From Betaproteobacteria bacterium (GTDB taxonomy: Bacteria > Pseudomonadota > Gammaproteobacteria > Burkholderiales > Rhodocyclaceae): DNA of 64,000 nucleotides. Made by a program: the position numbers and the translations under genes. The notes beneath the pieces were generated by a model. It was not told where the DNA came from, did no database searches, and was given only the letters and a program-made list of their open reading frames with translations. The stretch spans positions 2,520,316 to 2,584,315 of the forward strand of contig JADJXY010000002.1 of NCBI GenBank assembly GCA_016720065.1, in the 5' to 3' direction. This document shows positions 1,795 through 49,418 of the stretch, one piece after another. The stretch's first letter is position 1. Every line of letters starts with the position of its first letter.

Positions 1795-2343
1795 TCATCG
1801 CAGGCCCGGCCTGCGTGAGATGAGCGCGTCGAACACCTTTTCCAGCCCCGGATGAACGCCCCGCAATCCGGCCACAACCCGTTCAGCCCAATCGAAATAC
1901 GCCTGCTTGCGCTCGGCGGGCCAATCTGCGGGCGGTGAGTTCAACAGATCCCGCAGGTTGCTGATCTTGTCGGCAAGCTTGACCAGTTGCGCCGAGGGCG
2001 AGGCGGTGGCGGCGTGGACAACCTGCAACTGCTTGCGTTCGGCCTTCTGCAAGGACTTGTCGTCGGTCACTTCCAGCACGATGTCGCAGACCCGCCCGCC
2101 AAAAGCGTCGCGAAGCTCATCCGCCGTGGTTTCGGTGTCCTCGAGGGTGTCGTGGAGCAAGGCTGCGCAGAGCACATCCGGATCGGTGACGCCGCCCTCG
2201 GCGGCGAGCACGCTGGCCACGGCAATGGGGTGATTGACATAGGGTGAAGCTTCAGCGTCCTTGCGACGTTGGTTCCTGTGCCTTTCCGCCGCAAAGAGCG
2301 CCGCGCGCAATACTTTGGAAACCTCTGTGCTCATGAGTCTCAC
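1795..2343 (-). CDS. Small HD-domain (p)ppGpp hydrolase-like protein (SpoT/RelA N-terminal HD homolog, SAH/Mesh1-like)
   Basis: 182 aa with HD motif HDTLEDT and the SpoT-hydrolase-like block ...KLADKISNLRDL... Confidence 0.65.
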   Translation of the reverse strand: MRLMSTEVSKVLRAALFAAERHRNQRRKDAEASPYVNHPIAVASVLAAEGGVTDPDVLCAALLHDTLEDTETTADELRDAFGGRVCDIVLEVTDDKSLQKAERKQLQVVHAATASPSAQLVKLADKISNLRDLLNSPPADWPAERKQAYFDWAERVVAGLRGVHPGLEKVFDALISRRPGLR

Positions 2344-2440
2344 CTCCCGCAGTCATCCACAAACCTTGCCCGCCCCGCGCTACCCCCACCGCTTCCCCGG
2401 TGGCGCCACTGCGCCTGGCGTACCGAGTAGTCCGTCAGAC

Positions 2441-5163: not shown

Positions 5164-5643
5164 ATGAAGAGGGAAAAAAGCGATTCCAAGAAGGCGCAGA
5201 ACAAGCGGATCCTGGTCCTCCACGGCCCGAATCTCAACCTGCTCGGCACCCGCGAACCCCAACACTACGGTGCCGCCACCCTGAGCGACATCAATCGGGC
5301 CCTGGCCCGTCGCGCCGAGTTGGCCGGGATCGATCTGGAAACCTTCCAGAGCAATCACGAGGGCGCTCTGATCGAATGCATCCACGCAGCCCGGGAGCAA
5401 GGCGTCCGGGCCATCATCATCAACCCCGCTGCCTACACCCATACCAGCGTCGCCCTGCGGGACGCCCTGGCAGCCGTGGCGATTCCCTTCGTCGAGGTGC
5501 ACCTGTCCAACGTGCACGCCCGCGAGCCGTTCCGCCACCACTCCTATTTTTCCGACCTGGCCGTGGGCGTCATCTGCGGCCTCGGCCACCAGGGCTATCT
5601 GCTCGCCCTGGAGTATCTGCTCAACACGCTCGACAGCGACTGA
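5164..5643 (+). CDS. aroQ: 3-dehydroquinate dehydratase, type II
   Basis: Characteristic [17 protein letters not shown]...SNHEG...[10 protein letters not shown] motifs. Confidence 0.9.
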
Positions 5644-5691
5644 CCGCAGGGCGGCAGTCTTGGCGTCACCATCACGCTTGAGGGGAACCCC

Positions 5692-6150
5692 ATGGATTTG
5701 CGCAAATTGAAAAAACTCATCGACCTCGTCCAGGAGTCCGGCATTTCGGAACTCGAGGTGACGGAAGGCGAAGAAAAAGTCCGCATCGCCAAGCATTACG
5801 GAGCCGCCCCCGCCCCGGTCCAGCACTACCTTCCGGCCGGCATGCCCGCCGTCGCGGGCACTCCGGCGGCCCCGTCCGGTTCGGTCGATCTGGACGATGA
5901 AGACGACCTGGAAGACGGCCATGTGGTCAAGGCGCCCATGGTGGGCACTTTCTACCGCGCCCCGTCGCCGGGGGCCGATCCCCTCGTCGAGGTGGGTCAA
6001 TCGGTGAAGCAGGGCGATACCCTGTGCATCATCGAGGCCATGAAGCTCCTCAATGAAATCGAGGCCGACGTTTCCGGCACCGTCAAAGCCATCCTGGTGG
6101 AAAACGGCCAGCCGGTCGAATTCGGCGAGCCCCTGTTCGTCATCGGCTGA
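5692..6150 (+). CDS. accB: Acetyl-CoA carboxylase biotin carboxyl carrier protein
   Basis: C-terminal biotinyl domain with [12 protein letters not shown] (biotin attachment Lys) and Pro/Ala linker; followed by accC. Confidence 0.9.
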
Positions 6151-6161
6151 CGGGCCGAGCG

Positions 6162-6290
6162 ATGTTCGAGAAGATTCTCATTGCCGACAGGGGCGACCAG
6201 CCGCCCCTCGGCGGCGTAGCGGCGAAGCCAAATCGCACCATGGCCGCAGGCCAACAGGGCGATCTCACCCCGGAGACGCTTAGTGTTTGA
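6162..6290 (+). other. Putative upstream leader ORF (42 codons) mimicking the AccC N-terminus, overlapping the accC start
   Basis: ATG at 6162 encodes MFEKILIADRGD..., 10/12 identical to Acc[13 protein letters not shown] but with different synonymous codons. Stop TGA 6288-6290 overlaps the accC GTG (6283). A 16/17-nt inverted repeat (6254-6270 vs 6311-6327) brackets GGAG and GTG. Confidence 0.3.
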
Positions 6291-7641
6291 AAAAATCCTC
6301 ATTGCCAATCGGGGCGAGATCGCCCTGCGGGTGCAGCGTGCCTGCCGCGAACTGGGTATCAAGACGGTGGTCGTGCACTCCGAGGCCGACCGGGAAGCCA
6401 AGTACGTCAAGCTGGCCGACGAGTCGGTCTGCATCGGCCCTGCCCCCTCCGCCCAGAGCTACCTGAACATTCCGGCCATCATCTCGGCCGCCGAAGTGAC
6501 CGACTCCCAGGCCATCCACCCCGGCTACGGCTTTCTTTCCGAAAACGCCGACTTCGCGGAGCGCGTGGAGTCCTCGGGCTTCGTCTTCATCGGCCCCCGG
6601 GCGGAAACCATCCGCCTCATGGGCGACAAGGTTTCCGCCAAGGACACCATGAAGGCGGCCGGCGTCCCCTGCGTCCCAGGGTCCGAGGGCGCCCTGCCGG
6701 AAGACCCCAAGGAAGTCGTCCTCATCGCCCGCGCCATTGGCTATCCGGTCATCATCAAGGCGGCCGGGGGCGGGGGCGGACGGGGCATGCGCGTGGTGCA
6801 TACCGAGGCCGCCCTGGTCAATGCGGTGCAGATGACTCGCCAGGAGGCCCAGACCGCCTTCGGCAACCCCACCGTGTACATGGAAAAGTATCTGGAGAAC
6901 CCTCGCCACGTCGAGTTCCAGGTGCTCGCGGACACCCACCGCAACGCCATTTACCTGGGCGAGCGCGATTGTTCCATGCAGCGTCGCCACCAGAAGGTGA
7001 TCGAAGAGGCGCCGGCTCCCCTCATCCCGGCCCGCCTCATCCCCCGTATCGGCGATCGCTGTGCCGACGCCTGCCGCAAGATCGGCTACCGTGGGGCCGG
7101 CACCTTCGAATTCCTCTACGAGAACGGCGAGTTCTACTTCATCGAGATGAATACCCGGGTGCAGGTGGAACATCCGGTCACCGAAGCCATCACCGGCGTC
7201 GATATCGTCCAGGAGCAGATCCGCATCGCCGCCGGCGAGAAGCTGCGCTACCGCCAGAAGGACATCAGCACCCGGGGGCACGCCATCGAATGCCGCATCA
7301 ACGCCGAAGATGCCTTCACGTTCACCCCATCTCCCGGCAAGATCACCTTCTACCACCCCCCCGGCGGCCCCGGCATCCGGGTCGATACCCACATTTACCA
7401 GGGTTACACCGTTCCGCCCCATTACGATTCCATGGTGGCCAAGGTCATCGCCTACGGCGACACCCGGGAGCAGGCCATCCGCCGCATGCGCATCGCCTTG
7501 TCGGAAATGAGCATCGAGGGCATCAAGACCAATATTCCTTTGCATCAGGAACTCATGCAGGACGCGCACTTCATCGAAGGCGGCACCAGCATCCACTATC
7601 TGGAGCAGAAGCTGGCCCAGAAGAGCGAGGTCAAGGGCTGA
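6283..7641 (+). CDS. accC: Acetyl-CoA carboxylase biotin carboxylase subunit
   Basis: 452 aa, full-length match to AccC (ATP-grasp; [21 protein letters not shown]...). GTG start, GGAG RBS 9 nt upstream. Confidence 0.9.
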
Positions 7642-11462: not shown

Positions 11463-12263
11463 TTGCTCATGGCCCTGGGTATCGCCATGGTCGCCTGCGT
11501 CTATCCTCTCAGCGGCGACCGGCTGCGGCAGCGCTTGCGCCGCTGGTGGTCGCGCCGTGTCCTGGACGCCCTCGCCGTCGAAGTCGAAGCGGACCTGAGG
11601 CACGGGCGGCCGGGCAGCATGCTGGTGGCCAATCACATTTCCTGGCTGGACATCTTCGTCATCAACGCCAGCCTGCCGGCGGCCTTCGTGTCCAAGGAGG
11701 AAGTGCGCCACTGGCCGGTCGCCGGCTGGCTCGCGACCCGCAATGACACCATCTTCCTGAAGCGGGGCAGTCGCGGCCACGCCCGCCTCATCAACCAGGA
11801 AATCGCCGCGGTTCTTGCCCGGGACAAACTCGTGGCCGTCTTCCCCGAAGGCACGACCACCGACGGCACCCATCTGCTGCACTTCCACGCCGCCCTGATC
11901 CAGCCCGCCCTGGCCGCGGGCCGGCCGGTGGTGCCGACCGCCCTCTCCTACTGGGAGCCCGACGGTGAGCGCAGCCTGGCGCCGCGCTACAACGGGGACA
12001 TTTCCCTGGGCGAATGCCTGCAGAACATCCTCTCGCGCAAGCGCCTGGTGGCTCGTCTGGTGACGGCGCCGCCCCTGGGCCGGGACGGCGCCGACCGCCG
12101 CGTCGTCGCCGCGGCCGCGCGGGAGGCGATCAGCCGAGGGGCTGCGCTTCCCCCGCCGAGCACCCCACCTGGAAGACCTGCCGATCCTCCAGACGCAGCG
12201 CCGTCAGATGCCCCCCCCACAGGCAACCCGAGTCCAGCGCCAGAAGATTTGGCAAGAGCCTGA
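11463..12263 (+). CDS. olsA: Lysophospholipid/lyso-ornithine lipid O-acyltransferase (PlsC family, OlsA-like)
   Basis: HX4D acyltransferase motif (NHISWLD) and FPEGTTT motif; low-complexity Pro-rich C-terminal tail overlaps convergent apaH by 134 nt. Confidence 0.6.
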   Translation: MLMALGIAMVACVYPLSGDRLRQRLRRWWSRRVLDALAVEVEADLRHGRPGSMLVANHISWLDIFVINASLPAAFVSKEEVRHWPVAGWLATRNDTIFLKRGSRGHARLINQEIAAVLARDKLVAVFPEGTTTDGTHLLHFHAALIQPALAAGRPVVPTALSYWEPDGERSLAPRYNGDISLGECLQNILSRKRLVARLVTAPPLGRDGADRRVVAAAAREAISRGAALPPPSTPPGRPADPPDAAPSDAPPTGNPSPAPEDLARA

Positions 12264-12957
12264 GGCCCAGGGCCGACCAGTGCCCGGTGACCAGAACACT
12301 GGCGGCGCTCTGCCTTCCCGGCACCTCGAACCAGGGCAAATGACCGGGCGGCGCAGCAAGCGCCTCGCCCTTGGTATGGAATTCCATGACGCCCTCGGGG
12401 GTGCAGAAACGCAGGCGGGTCATCGCATTGACGATCACCCGCAGGCGCGCCCAGCCCGTCAGTTCATCGGACCAGGCGGCGGGCTCACTGCCCCAGAGGT
12501 TGAGGATGAAGTCGCGGTAGGAGGGCCCACGCAGAGCGGTCTCGACCTCCGCCGCAAGTTCCAATGCCCGCGCTGCGGTCCATTGCGGCAGCAAGCCGGC
12601 GTGGACGAGGCCATACTCCCCCGCGCAATGGAACAAGCGCTGGAAGCGAAGCCAGTGTAGAAGCTCGCCGCAGTCGGGGGCGTCGAGGATCTCCTGCAGG
12701 GTATCGTCCTTGCCGCGGAACTTGGCGCCCCCCTCAGCCACCATCAGCAGGTACAGATCGTGGTTGCCGAGCACCGTCACCGCCGCCTCGCCCAGGTCTC
12801 TGACGAAGCGCAGGGTCTCCAGGGACCGCGGCCCCCGATTGACCAGATCCCCCACCAGCCACAGGCGGTCGGAGGCGGGGTCGAAGGCACAAAGATCGAG
12901 CAGTCGTCGGAAGGAGTCGAAGCACCCCTGGATGTCACCGACGGCGTAGGTGGCCAT
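12130..12957 (-). CDS. apaH: Bis(5'-nucleosyl)-tetraphosphatase (symmetrical)
   Basis: 275 aa, metallophosphatase motifs (MATYAVGDIQGC, GDLVNRG, GNHD) matching ApaH. Confidence 0.85.
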   Translation of the reverse strand: MATYAVGDIQGCFDSFRRLLDLCAFDPASDRLWLVGDLVNRGPRSLETLRFVRDLGEAAVTVLGNHDLYLLMVAEGGAKFRGKDDTLQEILDAPDCGELLHWLRFQRLFHCAGEYGLVHAGLLPQWTAARALELAAEVETALRGPSYRDFILNLWGSEPAAWSDELTGWARLRVIVNAMTRLRFCTPEGVMEFHTKGEALAAPPGHLPWFEVPGRQSAASVLVTGHWSALGLRLLPNLLALDSGCLWGGHLTALRLEDRQVFQVGCSAGEAQPLG

Positions 12958-12959
12958 TA

Positions 12960-13260
12960 CTCGACGGTCACGCTCTTGGCCAGATTGCGCGGTTTGTAGC
13001 TCCGGCCGGCCGCTGCCGCGGCCTTAACCTGGCGTTGCCAGCTTAGCCTGCGCTGCAAAACGCGGATTCCCAGGGTGGTCACCGCCGTCACTCCACCGTA
13101 ACGCTCTTCGCAAGATTGCGCGGTTTGTAGCTCCGGCCGGCCGCTGCCGCGGCCTTAACCTGGCGTTGCCAGGTTAGCCTGCGCTGCAAAACGCGGATTC
13201 CCAGGGTGGTCACCACCGTCACTCCACCGTAACGCTCTTCGCAAGATTGCGCGGTTTGTC
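12960..13260. repeat. Tandem ~130-bp repeat (2 full + 1 partial unit), each unit re-encoding the last 13 codons + stop of glmS
   Basis: Units at 12960-13091, 13092-13221 and 13222-13259 (merging into glmS). Each contains rc-encoded [12 protein letters not shown]. The copy abutting the apaH ATG differs from the glmS-attached copy only at 5 synonymous positions. Spacer carries hairpins ccttaacctgg-cgttg-ccaggtta and ggccgc-tgcc-gcggcc. Confidence 0.8.
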
Positions 13261-15042
13261 CACATCCGTCCCCTTGACCAGGGCTGCGTGGTAGGAGAGC
13301 AGTTGCAGGGGGACGACGTGGAGGATGGGGGAGAGTTCGCCGTAGTGCTCGGGCAGGCGCAGGATGTGGACGCCTTCGGATTCGGGGATTTCCGAATCGG
13401 CATCGGCGAAAACGTAGAGTTCGCCGCCGCGGGCCTTCACTTCCTGCAGGTTGCTCTTGAGCTTTTCCAGCAGGGTGTCGTTGGGGGCAACGGAGATGAC
13501 CGGCATTTCCCGATCCACCAGGGCCAGGGGACCGTGCTTCAACTCACCGGCGGGGTAGGCCTCGGCGTGGATGTAGGAAATTTCCTTCAGTTTCAGCGCG
13601 CCTTCCAGAGCAATGGGGTAGTGACGGCCGCGACCGAGGAAGAGGGCGTGATGCTTGTTGGCGAACTTCTGCGCCCAGGCTTCGATTTCCGGCTCCAGTT
13701 CGAGCACCTTGTTCACCGCCACCGGCAGGTGGCGCAGGCGGTCGAGGTAGGAGGCTTCCGCTTCCGGGGTGAGGCGGCCGCGCACCTTGGCCAGCACCAG
13801 AGTCAGGAGAAAGAGGGCCGCGAGTTGCGTGGTGAAGGCCTTGGTCGAGGCGACGCCGATTTCCGGGCCGGCCCGGGTGATGAAGCGCAGGGCCGATTCG
13901 CGCACGATGGCCGATTCAGGCACGTTGCAGATGGCCAGGGTACGCAATTGCCCGAGGGACTTGGCGTGGCGCAGGGCGGCCAGCGTGTCGGCGGTTTCGC
14001 CGGATTGGGAAATGGCGACCACCAGCTGATCCGCGTCGGGCACCGAGTCGCGGTAGCGGTACTCGCTGGCGATTTCCACCGTGCAGGGCACGCCCGAGAT
14101 GGCTTCCAGCCAGTAGCGGGCGGTGAGTCCCGAGTGGTAGCTGGTGCCGCAAGCCAGGATCAGGATGGAGCGGGCGCCGGCCATCACGTCGGCCGCCTCG
14201 GCGCCGAAGATGCCCGGCTGGATGCTCTTGCTGCCGCCGACCATTTCCAGGGTGTTGGCCAGGGCGTCGGGCTGCTCGAAGATTTCCTTCTGCATGTAAT
14301 GGCGGAACTTGCCCAGTTCGACGGCGTCGGCCGAAAGCTGGGAAACCGTCACCGGCCGATCCACCGGCTGACCGCCGGCCTGGACGATGCGCACCGATTC
14401 CGGGGTCAGTTCGGCGATGTCGCCATTTTCCAGATAGACCATGTTGCGGGTGACCTGGAGCAGGGCCGAGGCGTCGGAAGCGGCGTAGTTGCCGCCCTCG
14501 CTGCGCCCGAGCAGCAGGGGAGAACCCTCCCGCGCGACGACCACCTTGCCCGGCTGACGGCGGTCGATGACGGCGATGGCGTAGGCCCCCACCAGACGGG
14601 ACGTGGCCTGCTGCACGGCCTTGAAGAGGTCCGGTTCGCGCTTCAGGGTTTCCTCGACCAGGTGGGCGATGCTCTCGGTGTCGGTGTCCGAGGTGAAGGC
14701 GTAGCCCTTGGCGGCCAGTTCCTCGCGCAGCGCTTCGTAATTCTCGATGATGCCGTTATGCACCACGGCGATGTGGCCCGAGACGTGGGGGTGGGCATTG
14801 CGTTCGCTGGGGGCGCCGTGGGTCGCCCAGCGGGTGTGGGCAATGCCGGTGGCCGAATGGGTGGCCGCCGACAGGGATTCGAGTTCCGCCACCCGGCCCA
14901 CGGATCGGATCCGGTCGATGCCGCTGGCGCCGATGACCGCCAGGCCGGCGGAATCGTAGCCCCGGTACTCGAGCTTCTTCAGGCCCTCGATGAGGACGGG
15001 AACGATATTGTTGCCGGCTGCTGCCGCGACGATGCCGCACAT
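13219..15042 (-). CDS. glmS: Glutamine--fructose-6-phosphate aminotransferase (isomerizing)
   Basis: 607 aa; N-terminal MCGIV Ntn-amidotransferase Cys1, two SIS domains, C-terminal ...[13 protein letters not shown]. Confidence 0.95.
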
Positions 15043-42848: not shown

Positions 42849-43723
42849 GCGCCCTTCTGATCGCCTCGCCACCGCCCGCGGAGTCGCGGCGTCTGGCCCT
42901 GGCGATCGGGATTTCCCTGGCGCTGCACGCCGCGCTGCTCGCCTTGCACTTCCAGTTTCCCGAAGCCTCTCGCGCCGTGCGCGAGAAGGCCCTGGACATC
43001 ATCCTGGTCAATGCCAAGTCCGCTACCAAGCCCAAGGATCCCCAGGCCCTGGCTCAGAGCAATCTGGACGGCGGGGGCAACACCGACGAAAACCGCCGCG
43101 CCAAGACTCCCCTGCCGCCGACCCGGCAGCAGACCGCCGGCAGCGACGTGGAGCAGATGCAGCGCCGGGTGCAGGAACTGGAGGCGCGTCAGCAGCAACT
43201 GTTGAGCGAGGCCCGCACCCTGAGGAGCGCCACGGTGACGCCCCCCGGCGAGGAGCGCAACACGGCCCCCAACGCCACCGGCCTCGACCTGGTCGAAGCC
43301 GCCCGGGCCATGGCCCGCCTGGAAGGCGAAATCAGCAAGTCGGTGGACGAATACAGCAAGCGGCCCCGGCGGCGCTTCATCGGCGCCCGGGCCGAGGAAT
43401 ACCGTTTTGCCCAGTACATCGAGGATTGGCGCCAGAAGGTCGAGCGGGTCGGCACCCTCAACTACCCGGATGCAGCCCGCGGCAAACTCTACGGCTCCCT
43501 GGTCATGACGGTCTCTATCCTGGCCGACGGCAGCGTCGCACACATCGACATCAGCCGATCCTCCGGCCACAAGGTTCTCGATGACGCCGCACGGCGCATC
43601 GTCCAGATGGCCTCCCCCTACGCCGCCTTCCCGCCGGAAATCCGCCGCGATACCGACATCCTGGATGTGACGCGCATCTGGTACTTCACTCAGGGAGACA
43701 GCCTGGAGTCCAAGGCACGATGA
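42845..43723 (+). CDS. TonB-family C-terminal domain protein (energy transducer TonB-like)
   Basis: N-terminal TM anchor, Pro/Gln-rich spacer, C-terminal TonB-like domain (…YPDAARGKLYGSLVMTVSILADGSVAHIDISRSSGHKVLDDAARRIV…); start overlaps the RNB gene stop (ATGA). Confidence 0.6.
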   Translation: MSALLIASPPPAESRRLALAIGISLALHAALLALHFQFPEASRAVREKALDIILVNAKSATKPKDPQALAQSNLDGGGNTDENRRAKTPLPPTRQQTAGSDVEQMQRRVQELEARQQQLLSEARTLRSATVTPPGEERNTAPNATGLDLVEAARAMARLEGEISKSVDEYSKRPRRRFIGARAEEYRFAQYIEDWRQKVERVGTLNYPDAARGKLYGSLVMTVSILADGSVAHIDISRSSGHKVLDDAARRIVQMASPYAAFPPEIRRDTDILDVTRIWYFTQGDSLESKAR

Positions 43724-43746
43724 CCGACCGTTACGCCGTTTTTGGC

Positions 43747-43979
<233 letters not shown>

Positions 43980-44006
<27 letters not shown>

Positions 44007-44804
44007 AATCCCATCGGCCACTCCAAGTCGCCGGCCATCCACGCGGCTTTCGCCGCGCAGACGCACCAAGCCATCCGCTACGAGGCCATTCTTGCCCCCC
44101 TGGACGGCTTTGCCCGTGCCGTGGGCGAATTTGCGGCCACCGGCGGCCGCGGGGCCAATGTCACGGTGCCTTTCAAGGAGGAGGCGCACCGCCTTGCCAC
44201 CCGCCTTTCGCCCCGTGCCGTCCGGGCGGGGGCGGTCAATACGTTGAGCTTCGACGCCGAAGGCATCGCCGGGGACAACACCGACGGGGCCGGTCTGGTG
44301 GCCGACCTGCAGGGCAACCTGGGCTTTGCCCTGGCCGGCCGCCGCGTGCTCCTCCTGGGGGCGGGGGGCGCCGCCCGGGGCGTGGCCGGCCCCCTTCTCG
44401 ACGCGGGCGTCGCGCAACTCTTCATCGCCAATCGCAACCCCGTCCGGGCCCATGAACTGGCGCGGCTCTTCTCCCCCCACGGCGAGGTTTCCGGCCACGG
44501 GCTGGGCGAAATCCGGGGCAGTTTCGACCTGGTCATCAACGCCACGGCGGCGAGCCTGGCCGGAGAATCCCTCGCCCTTCCCCCCGGCAGCTATGCCCCC
44601 GGCGCCCTGGCCTACGACATGATGTACGGCCGCGACGAGACGCCCTTCCTCCTTGCCGCCCGCGCCCTGGGCGCCGCCCGGGGGGCCGACGGCCTGGGCA
44701 TGCTGGTCGAACAGGCGGCGGAGGCCTTCCTGCACTGGCGGGGCCTGCGTCCCGACACGGCTCCGGTCCTGGCCGACCTGCGCGCCCGGCTCGCCGCTGC
44801 ATGA
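43980..44804 (+). CDS. aroE: Shikimate dehydrogenase
   Basis: MTDRYAVFGNPIGHSKSP N-terminus, NTD motif, Rossmann GAGGAARG. Confidence 0.9.
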
Positions 44805-48610: not shown

Positions 48611-49418
48611 GGGCGGTTTCCTCGAACAGGTGTTGATAGGCGGCTGCCCGGGCAGCAATGTCCTGGGCGGCGAAAAGATCGGTGATGACGGCCAGCAGGT
48701 CGGCGCCGGCGGCGATGACGGCCGGGGCGTTGTCCAGGGTGATGCCGCCGATGGCACAGGCGGGCGTCCCCAGTTCCTGCCGGGCGCGGGTGAAAAGTTC
48801 CAGGGGGGCAGCCTCCGCGGCGGGTTTGGTCGACGAGGGAAAGACGGCGCCGAAGGCGACGTAGTCGGCCCCCCGGGCCCGGGCTGCCAGCGCGAGGTCG
48901 TAGCGCCCATGGCAGGTGACGCCGACGATGGCGGTGGAACCCAGGCGACGGCGGGCGAAGGCGGCGTCGCCGTCCCCCTGGCCCAGATGGACGCCCGCCG
49001 CGCCCACGGCTGCGGCGAGTTCGAGGTCGTCATTGACGATCAGGGCGGCGCCGTACGCGCGGCACAGGGAAAGAAGCGCCTCGGCCCGCCGCCGGCGCTC
49101 CGGCGGCGCAGACCGCTTGTCGCGGTACTGCAGCCAGCGACAGCCCCCCAGGAGCGCCGCTTCCACTGCGACGAAAAGGCTCCCGGCGTCGGCCGACTCC
49201 GGCGTGATGGCGTAGAGGCCGCGCAGGGGAAGGACACGGCTCCCCGGCAACGGTGACGAGGCGCTCACTGGACGCCCCTCCTGTCCCTGCGGGACATCCT
49301 CCCCGAGGGAGGGTGCGCACGCCCTTCGGGCGGCCGAGCAGGCGCGCTGCGGACCGCCCTCCTGCCCCTGCCGGACATCCTCCCCGAGGGAGGGTGCGCG
49401 CACGCGCTCATGGCGCAT
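48582..49418 (-). CDS. thiE: Thiamine-phosphate synthase
   Basis: C-terminal ~215 aa matches ThiE ([10 protein letters not shown]...; [17 protein letters not shown]). N-terminal ~60 codons encoded by a tandem-repeat region; true start may be GTG near 49268. Confidence 0.7.
49283..49404. repeat. Tandem direct repeat (~40-bp unit x2) at the thiD-thiE junction
   Basis: ctg(c/g)ggacatcctccccgagggagggtgcgc(g)cacgc occurs at 49283-49322 and 49363-49404, giving a duplicated peptide segment ([13 protein letters not shown]) if translated. Confidence 0.7.

Follow-up and report, generated by a model that had tools for sequence, protein, structure and literature searches.

Organization of the accB-accC junction

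This analysis concerns the leader of accC, the gene for biotin carboxylase, in a 64,000-nucleotide (nt) stretch of contig JADJXY010000002.1 (assembly GCA_016720065.1; Betaproteobacteria bacterium, Rhodocyclaceae), called the window throughout. The genes are arranged there in the order aroQ-accB-accC-prmA, and accB is separated from accC by a gap of 132 nt that contains an additional ATG at 6162 (Table 1). Promoter-like and terminator-like sites were looked for in this gap and none was found, so accB and accC are presumably co-transcribed. The ATG lies 11 nt beyond the accB stop codon (6148-6150) and opens an upstream open reading frame (uORF) of 42 codons, whose first 12 residues are like the AccC N-terminus at 10 positions. 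This uORF had been proposed in an earlier note on the same DNA, and the list of open reading frames (ORFs) bears it out. At the DNA level, 6163-6196 and 6284-6317 form a direct repeat with 79% identity at an offset of 121 nt, and the two 35-nt copies differ at 7 positions.

The second element of the junction is an inverted repeat, 6255-6272 with 6310-6327, which is complementary at 17 of 18 positions and flanks the Shine-Dalgarno sequence and the GTG start of accC. The repeat was anticipated in the earlier note, with arms of 17 nt beginning at 6254; its 5' arm in fact starts at 6255 and its arms are 18 nt long. The GTG and most of the GGAG motif lie in the loop as described, but the first G (6272) is the last base of the 5' arm. 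The TGA that closes the uORF had been thought to overlap the GTG codon; it is found 5 nt past GTG 6283, in accC codons 2-3, and the two ORFs overlap by 8 nt. The 5' strand of this long hairpin, termed P4, is formed by uORF codons 32-37. When 6240-6335 was folded, a check that had been suggested, the hairpin dominated a structure of -46 kcal/mol; dinucleotide shuffles averaged -31.4 kcal/mol, giving z = -4.2. For the wider interval 6140-6340 the value was z = -3.5, again against dinucleotide shuffles.

An identical AccC protein is encoded on six public contigs, with neighbouring genes that mostly encode the same proteins; the uORF region was read on one of the six (L001), where it is identical to the window. 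Contig JAGOAP010000004.1 (GCA_017983825.1) matches the window.

Table 1. Features of the accC leader and of the gene-end duplications discussed in the text (window coordinates unless a locus is named)
Feature	Position	Strand	Basis or remark
accB (biotin carboxyl carrier protein)	5692..6150	+	ORF list; NCBIfam TIGR00531 BCCP; Pfam Biotin_lipoyl on source contig
u-copy (upstream copy of accC nt 1-35)	6162..6196	+	direct repeat; coding-like entropy
Putative relay uORF, 42 codons, TGA 6288-6290	6162..6290	+	ORF list; family conservation of length and frame
Hairpin P1 (GCCGCC-cctc-GGCGGC)	6200..6215	+	alignment columns 54-59/64-69
Small hairpin P2 (GGC-gaa-GCC)	6221..6229	+	alignment columns 75-77/81-83
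Hairpin P3 (UGGCC-gca-GGCCA in the window)	6241..6253	+	alignment columns 94-99/106-111
5' arm of long hairpin P4, antisense to accC nt 28-45	6255..6272	+	inverted repeat 17/18; minimum free energy and centroid folds
Shine-Dalgarno GGAG of accC, part within the P4 base	6272..6275	+	sequence; family motif
accC (biotin carboxylase), GTG start	6283..7641	+	ORF list; NCBIfam accC, 757 bits
Downstream copy of the duplicated 35 nt, at the accC 5' end	6283-6317	+	direct repeat
3' arm of P4, in accC codons 10-15	6310..6327	+	inverted repeat, folds, covariation
glmS	13219-15042	minus	
Two tandem 131-nt units 3' of glmS	12957-13222	minus	94% identical
apaH	12130-12957		adjoins the glmS units
aroE	43980-44804		
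Insert region upstream of aroE	43720-44006		
accB 3'-end duplication	L030 (Ferrigenium sp. UT4), 2250-2440		also in L122, L125, L127, L134 and L145, upstream of the accC uORF

Distribution of the module and its place within accC

Relatives of the junction were sought among 80 species-representative genomes that encode close AccC relatives. Besides the window contig, the carriers in this set are a Rhodocyclaceae metagenome-assembled genome (MAG) with two tandem 121-nt units ahead of accC (L010), a Rhodocyclales MAG (L042) and a Methyloversatilis MAG (L063), each with a unit ahead of accC, and L002, the closest relative (92% AccC identity), in which the module is decayed. A fifth, diverged member was recovered in the isolate Ideonella sp. 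BN130291 (L067) using an nhmmer profile of the spacer between the two copies. A metagenome collection was also scanned with a pattern taken from the spacer alone (GACCAGCYGCCNNNNGGCRGCGNAGCGRCG). This gave 69 loci, all 69 of which have the copy-spacer-copy build in a biotin carboxylase gene. The uORF and the inverted repeat thus recur in a family, as had to be checked, and the architecture was found in more than 70 independent contigs from many studies, isolate genomes included. Judged by AccC similarity, the carriers come nearest to Ferrigenium (Gallionellaceae), Thauera, Methyloversatilis and others. Where two units stand in tandem, they form uninterrupted chains of uORFs.

In three of the metagenome loci (L101, L109 and L111) the module sits at the same codon of a different gene, that for urea carboxylase (TIGR02712, 1955 bits), and the upstream gene encodes a urea-amidolyase-associated protein instead of accB. 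Both copies at these loci carry the paralog's own N-terminus (MF[DNK]KVLIANRG), so the duplicated codons derive from the host gene. With no accB upstream of these modules, the suggestion of a control specific to the AccB:AccC ratio does not hold.

The position of the insert can be read from the nearest relatives that lack the module (L003-L007, AccC identity 87-91%), in which accC starts 5-10 nt past the accB stop. Because the uORF ATG lies at 11 nt from accB, against this spacing of 5-10 nt, it most probably represents the ancestral accC start, with about 121 nt inserted within accC after codon 12; every carrier fits this arrangement. What had been described as extra intergenic sequence is thereby placed inside accC. 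The original start and the first 11-12 accC codons are left upstream, where they open the 42-codon uORF, and the insert brings P1-P3, the 18-nt antisense arm, a Shine-Dalgarno sequence and a second start with the first 12 codons. Since this second start and these codons are supplied, accC stays intact. A simple tandem duplication of accC was considered and rejected: compared by eye, with no statistic, to accC nt 36-121 and to its reverse complement, the spacer has no clear similarity beyond the 18-nt arm.

Conserved length, frame and start/stop geometry

The 53 distinct units in the alignment (A1) are strongly conserved in length. The unit measures 121 nt (42 codons) in 48 of them and 124 nt (43 codons, with the frame kept) in four, and the single remaining unit (L144) has a 3-nt in-frame deletion. 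The upstream start is ATG in 53/53; the downstream copy's start codon is likewise kept in 53/53, as ATG in 50 and GTG in three, with a Shine-Dalgarno-like motif no more than 19 nt from it in 52/53. The uORF stop falls within codons 2-4 of the real gene in 52 of the 53 units. It is TGA in 50, TAA at the same position in one, and displaced 3 nt downstream in two. At these two loci accC begins with ATGTTCGGTAAG and so has no TTTGA, and a TAA 3 nt later is used instead. An upstream ORF ending near the downstream start, the geometry of translational coupling, is therefore present in the window and in 52/53 units.

One metagenome locus departs from this pattern: in L112 (594-780) the upstream copy has lost 1 nt, which joins the uORF and accC in a single frame. 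A 40-residue N-terminal extension is predicted as a result; the variant may be real or may stem from a metagenome sequencing error.

Long accB-accC spacers of another kind, 84-195 nt and unrelated to the module, were observed in L020, L023, L024, L034, L035, L040, L058 and L065. Several long spacers of Burkholderiales type hold an ATG-initiated ORF that closes at the same TGA, inside ATGTTTGA of accC, and among the 80 relatives TTTGA at accC codons 2-3 seemed commoner where the spacer was long. It may be that relay uORFs before accC are not confined to the module, or these cases may be due to chance.

RNA structure and covariation

When the family was folded with RNAalifold, three local hairpins, P1, P2 and P3, and the long-range helix P4, between the arm and accC nt 28-45, were obtained. 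In this structure 97.2% of alignment cells are paired, 15 of 31 pairs have compensatory changes, and 154 cells are doubly changed. Shuffles gave a covariation score of 0.157; the observed value is 0.301, which none of 500 shuffles attained. In controls in which the structure was slid along the alignment, 31-46% of cells were paired.

The collecting pattern had fixed part of P1 and P2, leaving P3, P4 and one pyrimidine/purine pair of P1 free to vary. It is this pair of P1 that switches between U-A (26 units) and C-G (24 units). In P2, G-C is replaced by A-U in three sequences, and the flanks GCAGCG and CAAATCGC are invariant. All six pairs of P3 have compensatory changes, and most relatives have 6 bp with GNRA-type loops. 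P4 is paired in 96% of cells, with compensatory double changes at 7 of 16 pairs, and its changes follow synonymous codons of accC: GGC/GGT goes with G/A and ATC/ATA with G/U in the arm, and GCC-CTG/GCG-TTG change together with their partners. P4 encloses the Shine-Dalgarno sequence and the start, with one strand inside the uORF, as a hairpin that sequesters a ribosome-binding site (RBS) should.

Wobble pairs that are valid in the sense-strand RNA alone (G·U) exceed the antisense equivalents (A·C) across the family by 76 to 15, an indication that the sense-strand RNA is the relevant one. On these comparative grounds the structure and the frame are evidently under selection. A search of Rfam 15 (E up to 10, 5600-6700) gave no match; chance miRNA-like hairpins were returned, the best of which reached 25 bits (E = 0.038) where the gathering score is 59.

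Protein-like and RNA-like constraint in the uORF

Codon-position entropies divide the uORF into two parts. In codons 2-11 the entropy at codon positions 1/2/3 is 0.29/0.08/1.19, close in form to the 0.15/0.04/1.07 of accC codons 2-15, so this part varies almost solely at third positions, as accC does. In codons 12-40 it is 0.71/0.48/0.60 and periodicity is absent. Between the two copies within a genome, 191 synonymous and 25 non-synonymous codon differences were counted over the 11 copied codons, where random single-base changes would give about 21:69. In some pairs 8 of 10 codons differ without any amino-acid change. The use of different synonymous codons, on which the earlier note had based its case against a trivial duplication, is thus a feature of the whole family.

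These data suggest that the copied N-terminal peptide or its codons have been retained while the remaining uORF evolves as structured RNA. A functional micropeptide over the whole ORF was rejected as the coding-type pattern is limited to codons 2-11. As possible causes of the conservation of the upstream copy there remain a nascent-peptide role, constraints on early elongation, and recombination with module-free accC alleles. The constraint is weaker than that on accC itself, since decayed upstream copies exist (L088, L089, L142 and L002). No conserved stall motif was seen in the uORF; Pro-Pro occurs only where the variable P1 pair is C-G. A search among 5.8 billion protein clusters found eight proteins of 42 amino acids that correspond to the uORF, all called "hypothetical protein" or unnamed.

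A proposed relay model for accC translation

We consider it probable that the uORF acts as a relay, opening the hairpin that sequesters the accC RBS and handing ribosomes to accC, and that the module is a conserved cis-acting element of biotin carboxylase genes in Betaproteobacteria. In untranslated mRNA, the arm would pair with accC codons 10-15 as P4 and enclose the Shine-Dalgarno sequence and the start, and free ribosomes would initiate poorly as long as P4 is closed. Ribosomes finishing accB would initiate the uORF at the ancestral coupled start site; because the uORF begins at the former accC start, it would inherit the coupling to accB. On their way through the uORF they would traverse P1-P3 and the arm, and since the 5' strand of P4 lies in the uORF they would have to melt P4. 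Termination would take place beside the Shine-Dalgarno sequence, at a TGA lying 5 nt downstream of the accC start. The start would then be exposed, and either the same ribosome could re-initiate there or a new one could bind. Through the uORF, translation of accC would in this way remain tied to translation upstream even with the insert in place, and P1-P3, with the invariant unpaired bases, may adjust or regulate this relay. Coupling by RNA unfolding and by re-initiation are both established mechanisms (PMC12548453).

The relay reading is supported by the decayed module of L002. The copied peptide and P1-P3 have been lost there, and a 29-codon uORF with the same start and the same TGA is retained together with the arm. 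The earlier note had offered coupling or attenuation as alternatives. A conserved coupling-type architecture (length, frame, a stop in place in 52/53 units, covarying arms) speaks for the first; nothing shows attenuation by a signal.

Several points weigh against the relay model. The dependence of accC translation on the uORF is deduced from sequence features, and a clear Shine-Dalgarno sequence belonging to the uORF itself is missing in the window. The urea carboxylase hosts have no coupled upstream gene within 75 nt. The amino-acid-level conservation of the first 11 uORF codons is left unexplained, and so is the near-invariance of P1-P3 and of about 20 unpaired bases. The covariation counts were taken over related sequences and so do not represent independent events, and some of the complementarity of arm and target could have arisen through template switching between the inverted repeats.

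Similar duplications at other gene ends

Two more gene-end duplications, at glmS and aroE, came to light when the window was scanned for direct repeats lying close together. The two glmS units are ORFs of 44 codons, each of which opens on the preceding stop (GTGA) and has a copied GlmS C-terminus at its end. Five codon changes, all of them synonymous, separate the last copy from the end of glmS itself, and the stop of the last unit overlaps the apaH start as TAATG. A blastn search of the glmS units against the plasmid collection returned matches to coding parts only. The start of aroE has an exact 27-nt copy (ATGACCGACCGTTACGCCGTTTTTGGC) 260 nt upstream, at an ATGA overlap with the preceding ORF, and nhmmer identifies the core of the aroE insert (43733-43803, minus orientation) as a homologue of the glmS units (E = 5e-12). 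The aroE insert also contains an uninterrupted run of about 110 G at about 43825-43935. This run is most likely an assembly or sequencing artefact of two-colour chemistry, which leaves the real sequence at this place in doubt.

The glmS and aroE inserts have in common a core with GTTTYGG.GCAGGCTAAC, a hairpin, GTTAAG and a GC-rich block. This core is found again behind a duplicated accB 3' end, both in the isolate Ferrigenium sp. UT4 and in Gallionellaceae-like metagenome loci. In these the last ~48 nt of accB, stop included, are repeated after a structured spacer of about 100 nt, as one or two tandem units; the result is a 46-47-codon ORF ending in ...NGQAVEFGQPLFVIG*, the AccB C-terminus, with synonymous differences between the copies. 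The glmS, aroE and accB inserts all have, near one end, an arm antisense to the start of the duplicated segment.

Homology between the accC spacer and the accB-3'/glmS core was not detectable with nhmmer (E about 1). In architecture the accC module is the mirror image of the glmS/aroE/accB core elements. The relay-like ORFs of glmS lie at the 3' end of their gene. It is conceivable, and is put forward here only tentatively, that the accC leader belongs to an unrecognised class of small palindromic, possibly mobile modules that colonise coupled gene junctions, each duplicating the terminal 27-48 nt of a gene and bringing an antisense arm and a relay ORF through which ribosomes would cross the insert. 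The antisense arms might serve as guides for target choice.

Another repeat was noticed at 49259-49399 of the window, where two copies of a 60-nt GC-rich sequence, 87% identical and 81 nt apart, lie in a short interval between ORFs. They have the look of a common extragenic repeat with no relation to the modules.

Alternative explanations

The first alternative is a selfish or neutral insertion, either a palindromic mobile element or a direct-inverted-direct duplication, in which the relay parts are only what is needed for the insertion to be tolerated and have no regulatory value for the host. We regard it as rather unlikely, and it is partly compatible with a relay, as an element of mobile origin may have been retained for its relay function. 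The distribution of the module is patchy: about 5 of the 80 species-level relatives have it, and L003-L007 lack it in spite of their closeness. Tandem two-unit arrays occur. The spacers in urea carboxylase genes are 13-15% diverged from those in accC, for host genes that are about 50% different, and spacer distance tracks host-gene distance weakly (Mantel r = 0.27). This combination of patchiness, tandem units, close paralog spacers and weak host tracking speaks for at least one transfer between paralogs and for frequent loss. Recombination between the flanking direct repeats would delete the module cleanly. The build itself, copy, core, antisense arm, copy, resembles that of the glmS, aroE and accB elements.

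A dispersed element would nevertheless be expected elsewhere. The module is found as one copy per locus, and neither a pattern search with 3 mismatches nor an nhmmer spacer profile revealed a second copy in the 64-kb window. All 69 pattern hits are confined to biotin carboxylase genes, so dispersed copies were not seen. No parent insertion sequence (IS) or plasmid relative emerged when the region was compared by blastn with 72,556 plasmids, a search that matched the coding parts only and had chromosomal IS collections outside its scope. An inverted repeat is present, made up of the arm and the duplicated target's end. The duplication of 33-35 nt starts exactly at the start codon and, to our knowledge, is unlike the target-site duplications of the common bacterial families of IS and of miniature inverted-repeat transposable elements. 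Compensatory changes that continue to arise and the G·U bias toward the sense strand show that selection on the RNA is ongoing and is not limited to a structure present when the insert arrived. A recombination scar, which the earlier note had allowed for, is not acceptable as a one-off event; the module originated by insertion or duplication all the same, and similar modules are found at other gene ends.

The second alternative, which we judge unlikely, is a signal-responsive attenuator or riboregulator. P1-P3 and their linkers would bind a metabolite or protein, such as a signal connected with biotin carboxylase, or a ribosome would pause in the uORF, and the arm would switch between upstream pairing and pairing with accC. 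Long invariant unpaired stretches (GACCAGC, GCAGCG and CAAATCGC) and GNRA-type hairpin loops would suit such a device, although part of this invariance is imposed by the pattern with which the family was collected. A shared signal would fit the occurrence of the module in two different biotin-dependent carboxylases. Alternative upstream partners of the arm also exist: the end of the upstream copy pairs in 92% of cells and AAATCGC in 88%. These helices, however, show almost no covariation and many mismatches, with two positions unpaired in 17 of 53 units, and the arm tracks the downstream copy, not the upstream one; for these reasons a switch-type attenuator is ranked below a plain relay. The module has no Rfam match, and L002 retains the relay after the loss of P1-P3.

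A third possibility is recoding, in which a ribosome that initiates at the upstream ATG skips the 121 nt in the manner of T4 gene 60, or RNA processing removes them, so that the upstream copy encodes the real AccC N-terminus. It would account for the amino-acid constraint and accC-like entropy of that copy, the putative take-off and landing sequences match (CGC GGY GA), and a hairpin begins 5 nt past the take-off codon. The Gly-11 codon, on the other hand, is identical between the copies in just 30/53 units, and no stop follows the putative take-off site, GGY being followed by GAC CAG in all members. The downstream start and its Shine-Dalgarno motif, kept as described above, would be superfluous for bypassing, and the conserved uORF stop and frame would be left unexplained. 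The constraint on the upstream copy could equally stem from recombination with module-free alleles. The longest bypass we know of is the 50-nt gap of T4 gene 60, and 121 nt is far longer. Recoding is accordingly held to be very improbable.

That the module is an assembly duplication or a private, biologically meaningless recombination scar deserves hardly any credence: the window does come from a MAG with a suspicious poly-G run of about 110 nt, but the 35-nt copies differ at 7 positions, the identical AccC recurs on the six public contigs (the uORF region being read on one, L001), and family-level conservation across the more than 70 contigs and isolate genomes refutes it.

Implications

The products of accBC act at the first committed step of fatty-acid synthesis; how AccB and AccC are balanced is physiologically important. 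If the relay reading is true, the module is a new post-transcriptional element for fatty-acid synthesis in Rhodocyclales, Gallionellaceae-like and some Burkholderiales genomes, groups that include wastewater and iron-cycling bacteria. It would be a natural counterpart of the "bicistronic design" of synthetic biology and a concrete case of an essential, translationally coupled gene carrying an insert within its coding region. It also poses a puzzle about selection that goes beyond current models of coupling, in that a leader peptide is held identical to the N-terminus of the protein that follows it. For annotation, the uORF is almost never annotated and the duplicated start can mislead start-codon calls. 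Should the glmS, aroE and accB modules prove to be the same phenomenon, they would together form a new class of genome-shaping elements.

Comparison with known systems

Literature on accC and accB leaders, uORFs, RNA motifs, palindromic elements and coupling was searched, and nothing describing the module was found. Its working principle, coupling through an RBS hairpin, is known; the element itself is absent from Rfam 15 and from the literature searched.

Palindromic and insertion elements in or beside genes include the Rickettsia RPE, REP/BIME and Correia elements and IS1634-type elements with long direct repeats. The accC module resembles them as a small structured insert tolerated in a gene or at its end, with inverted repeats, tandem copies and a paralogous target. 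It differs in being single per genome region and tied to one codon of biotin carboxylase, with no transposase relative identified. Integrative elements that use att sites in tRNA genes or at gene ends likewise keep their target intact by a duplicated gene end whose copies differ silently. The accC insert, however, is only about 86 nt and has no integrase, and its length and structure are conserved across lineages, unlike a deletion remnant.

T4 gene 60 and the mitochondrial "byp" elements are comparable as non-coding inserts in a coding region, with matching flank codons and a hairpin at the 5' junction. Their defining features are not seen here, and accC has its own start after the insert. 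In the translational attenuation of ermC and cat by leader peptides, a short leader ORF precedes an RBS held in a hairpin, and alternative pairings are possible, as in accC. No stall signal or inducer is evident in the accC module and its alternative helices lack covariation. The overlap of its leader stop with the main ORF speaks for constitutive coupling more than for switching by a stall.

Coupling by RNA unfolding or termination-reinitiation is documented for MS2 coat-lysis, f1 genes VII-IX and Escherichia coli rpmI-rplT (PMC12548453). The likeness to accC is close: an upstream ORF runs through one strand of the RBS hairpin and stops within a few nt of the downstream start. In accC this upstream ORF is not a gene but would be a dedicated 42-codon relay, made of the gene's own first codons and a structured insert. 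The accC module also recurs at one exact codon, and its dependence is read from sequence. A further parallel is found in the synthetic bicistronic design (BCD) expression cassettes reportedly introduced by Mutalik et al. in 2013. In both cases a short leader cistron contains a second Shine-Dalgarno sequence and ends over the gene start, with structure cleared, or in accC probably cleared, by the helicase activity of the ribosome. Compared with BCD, the accC module is natural and conserved, and it keeps a strong covarying hairpin and extra hairpins in its leader.

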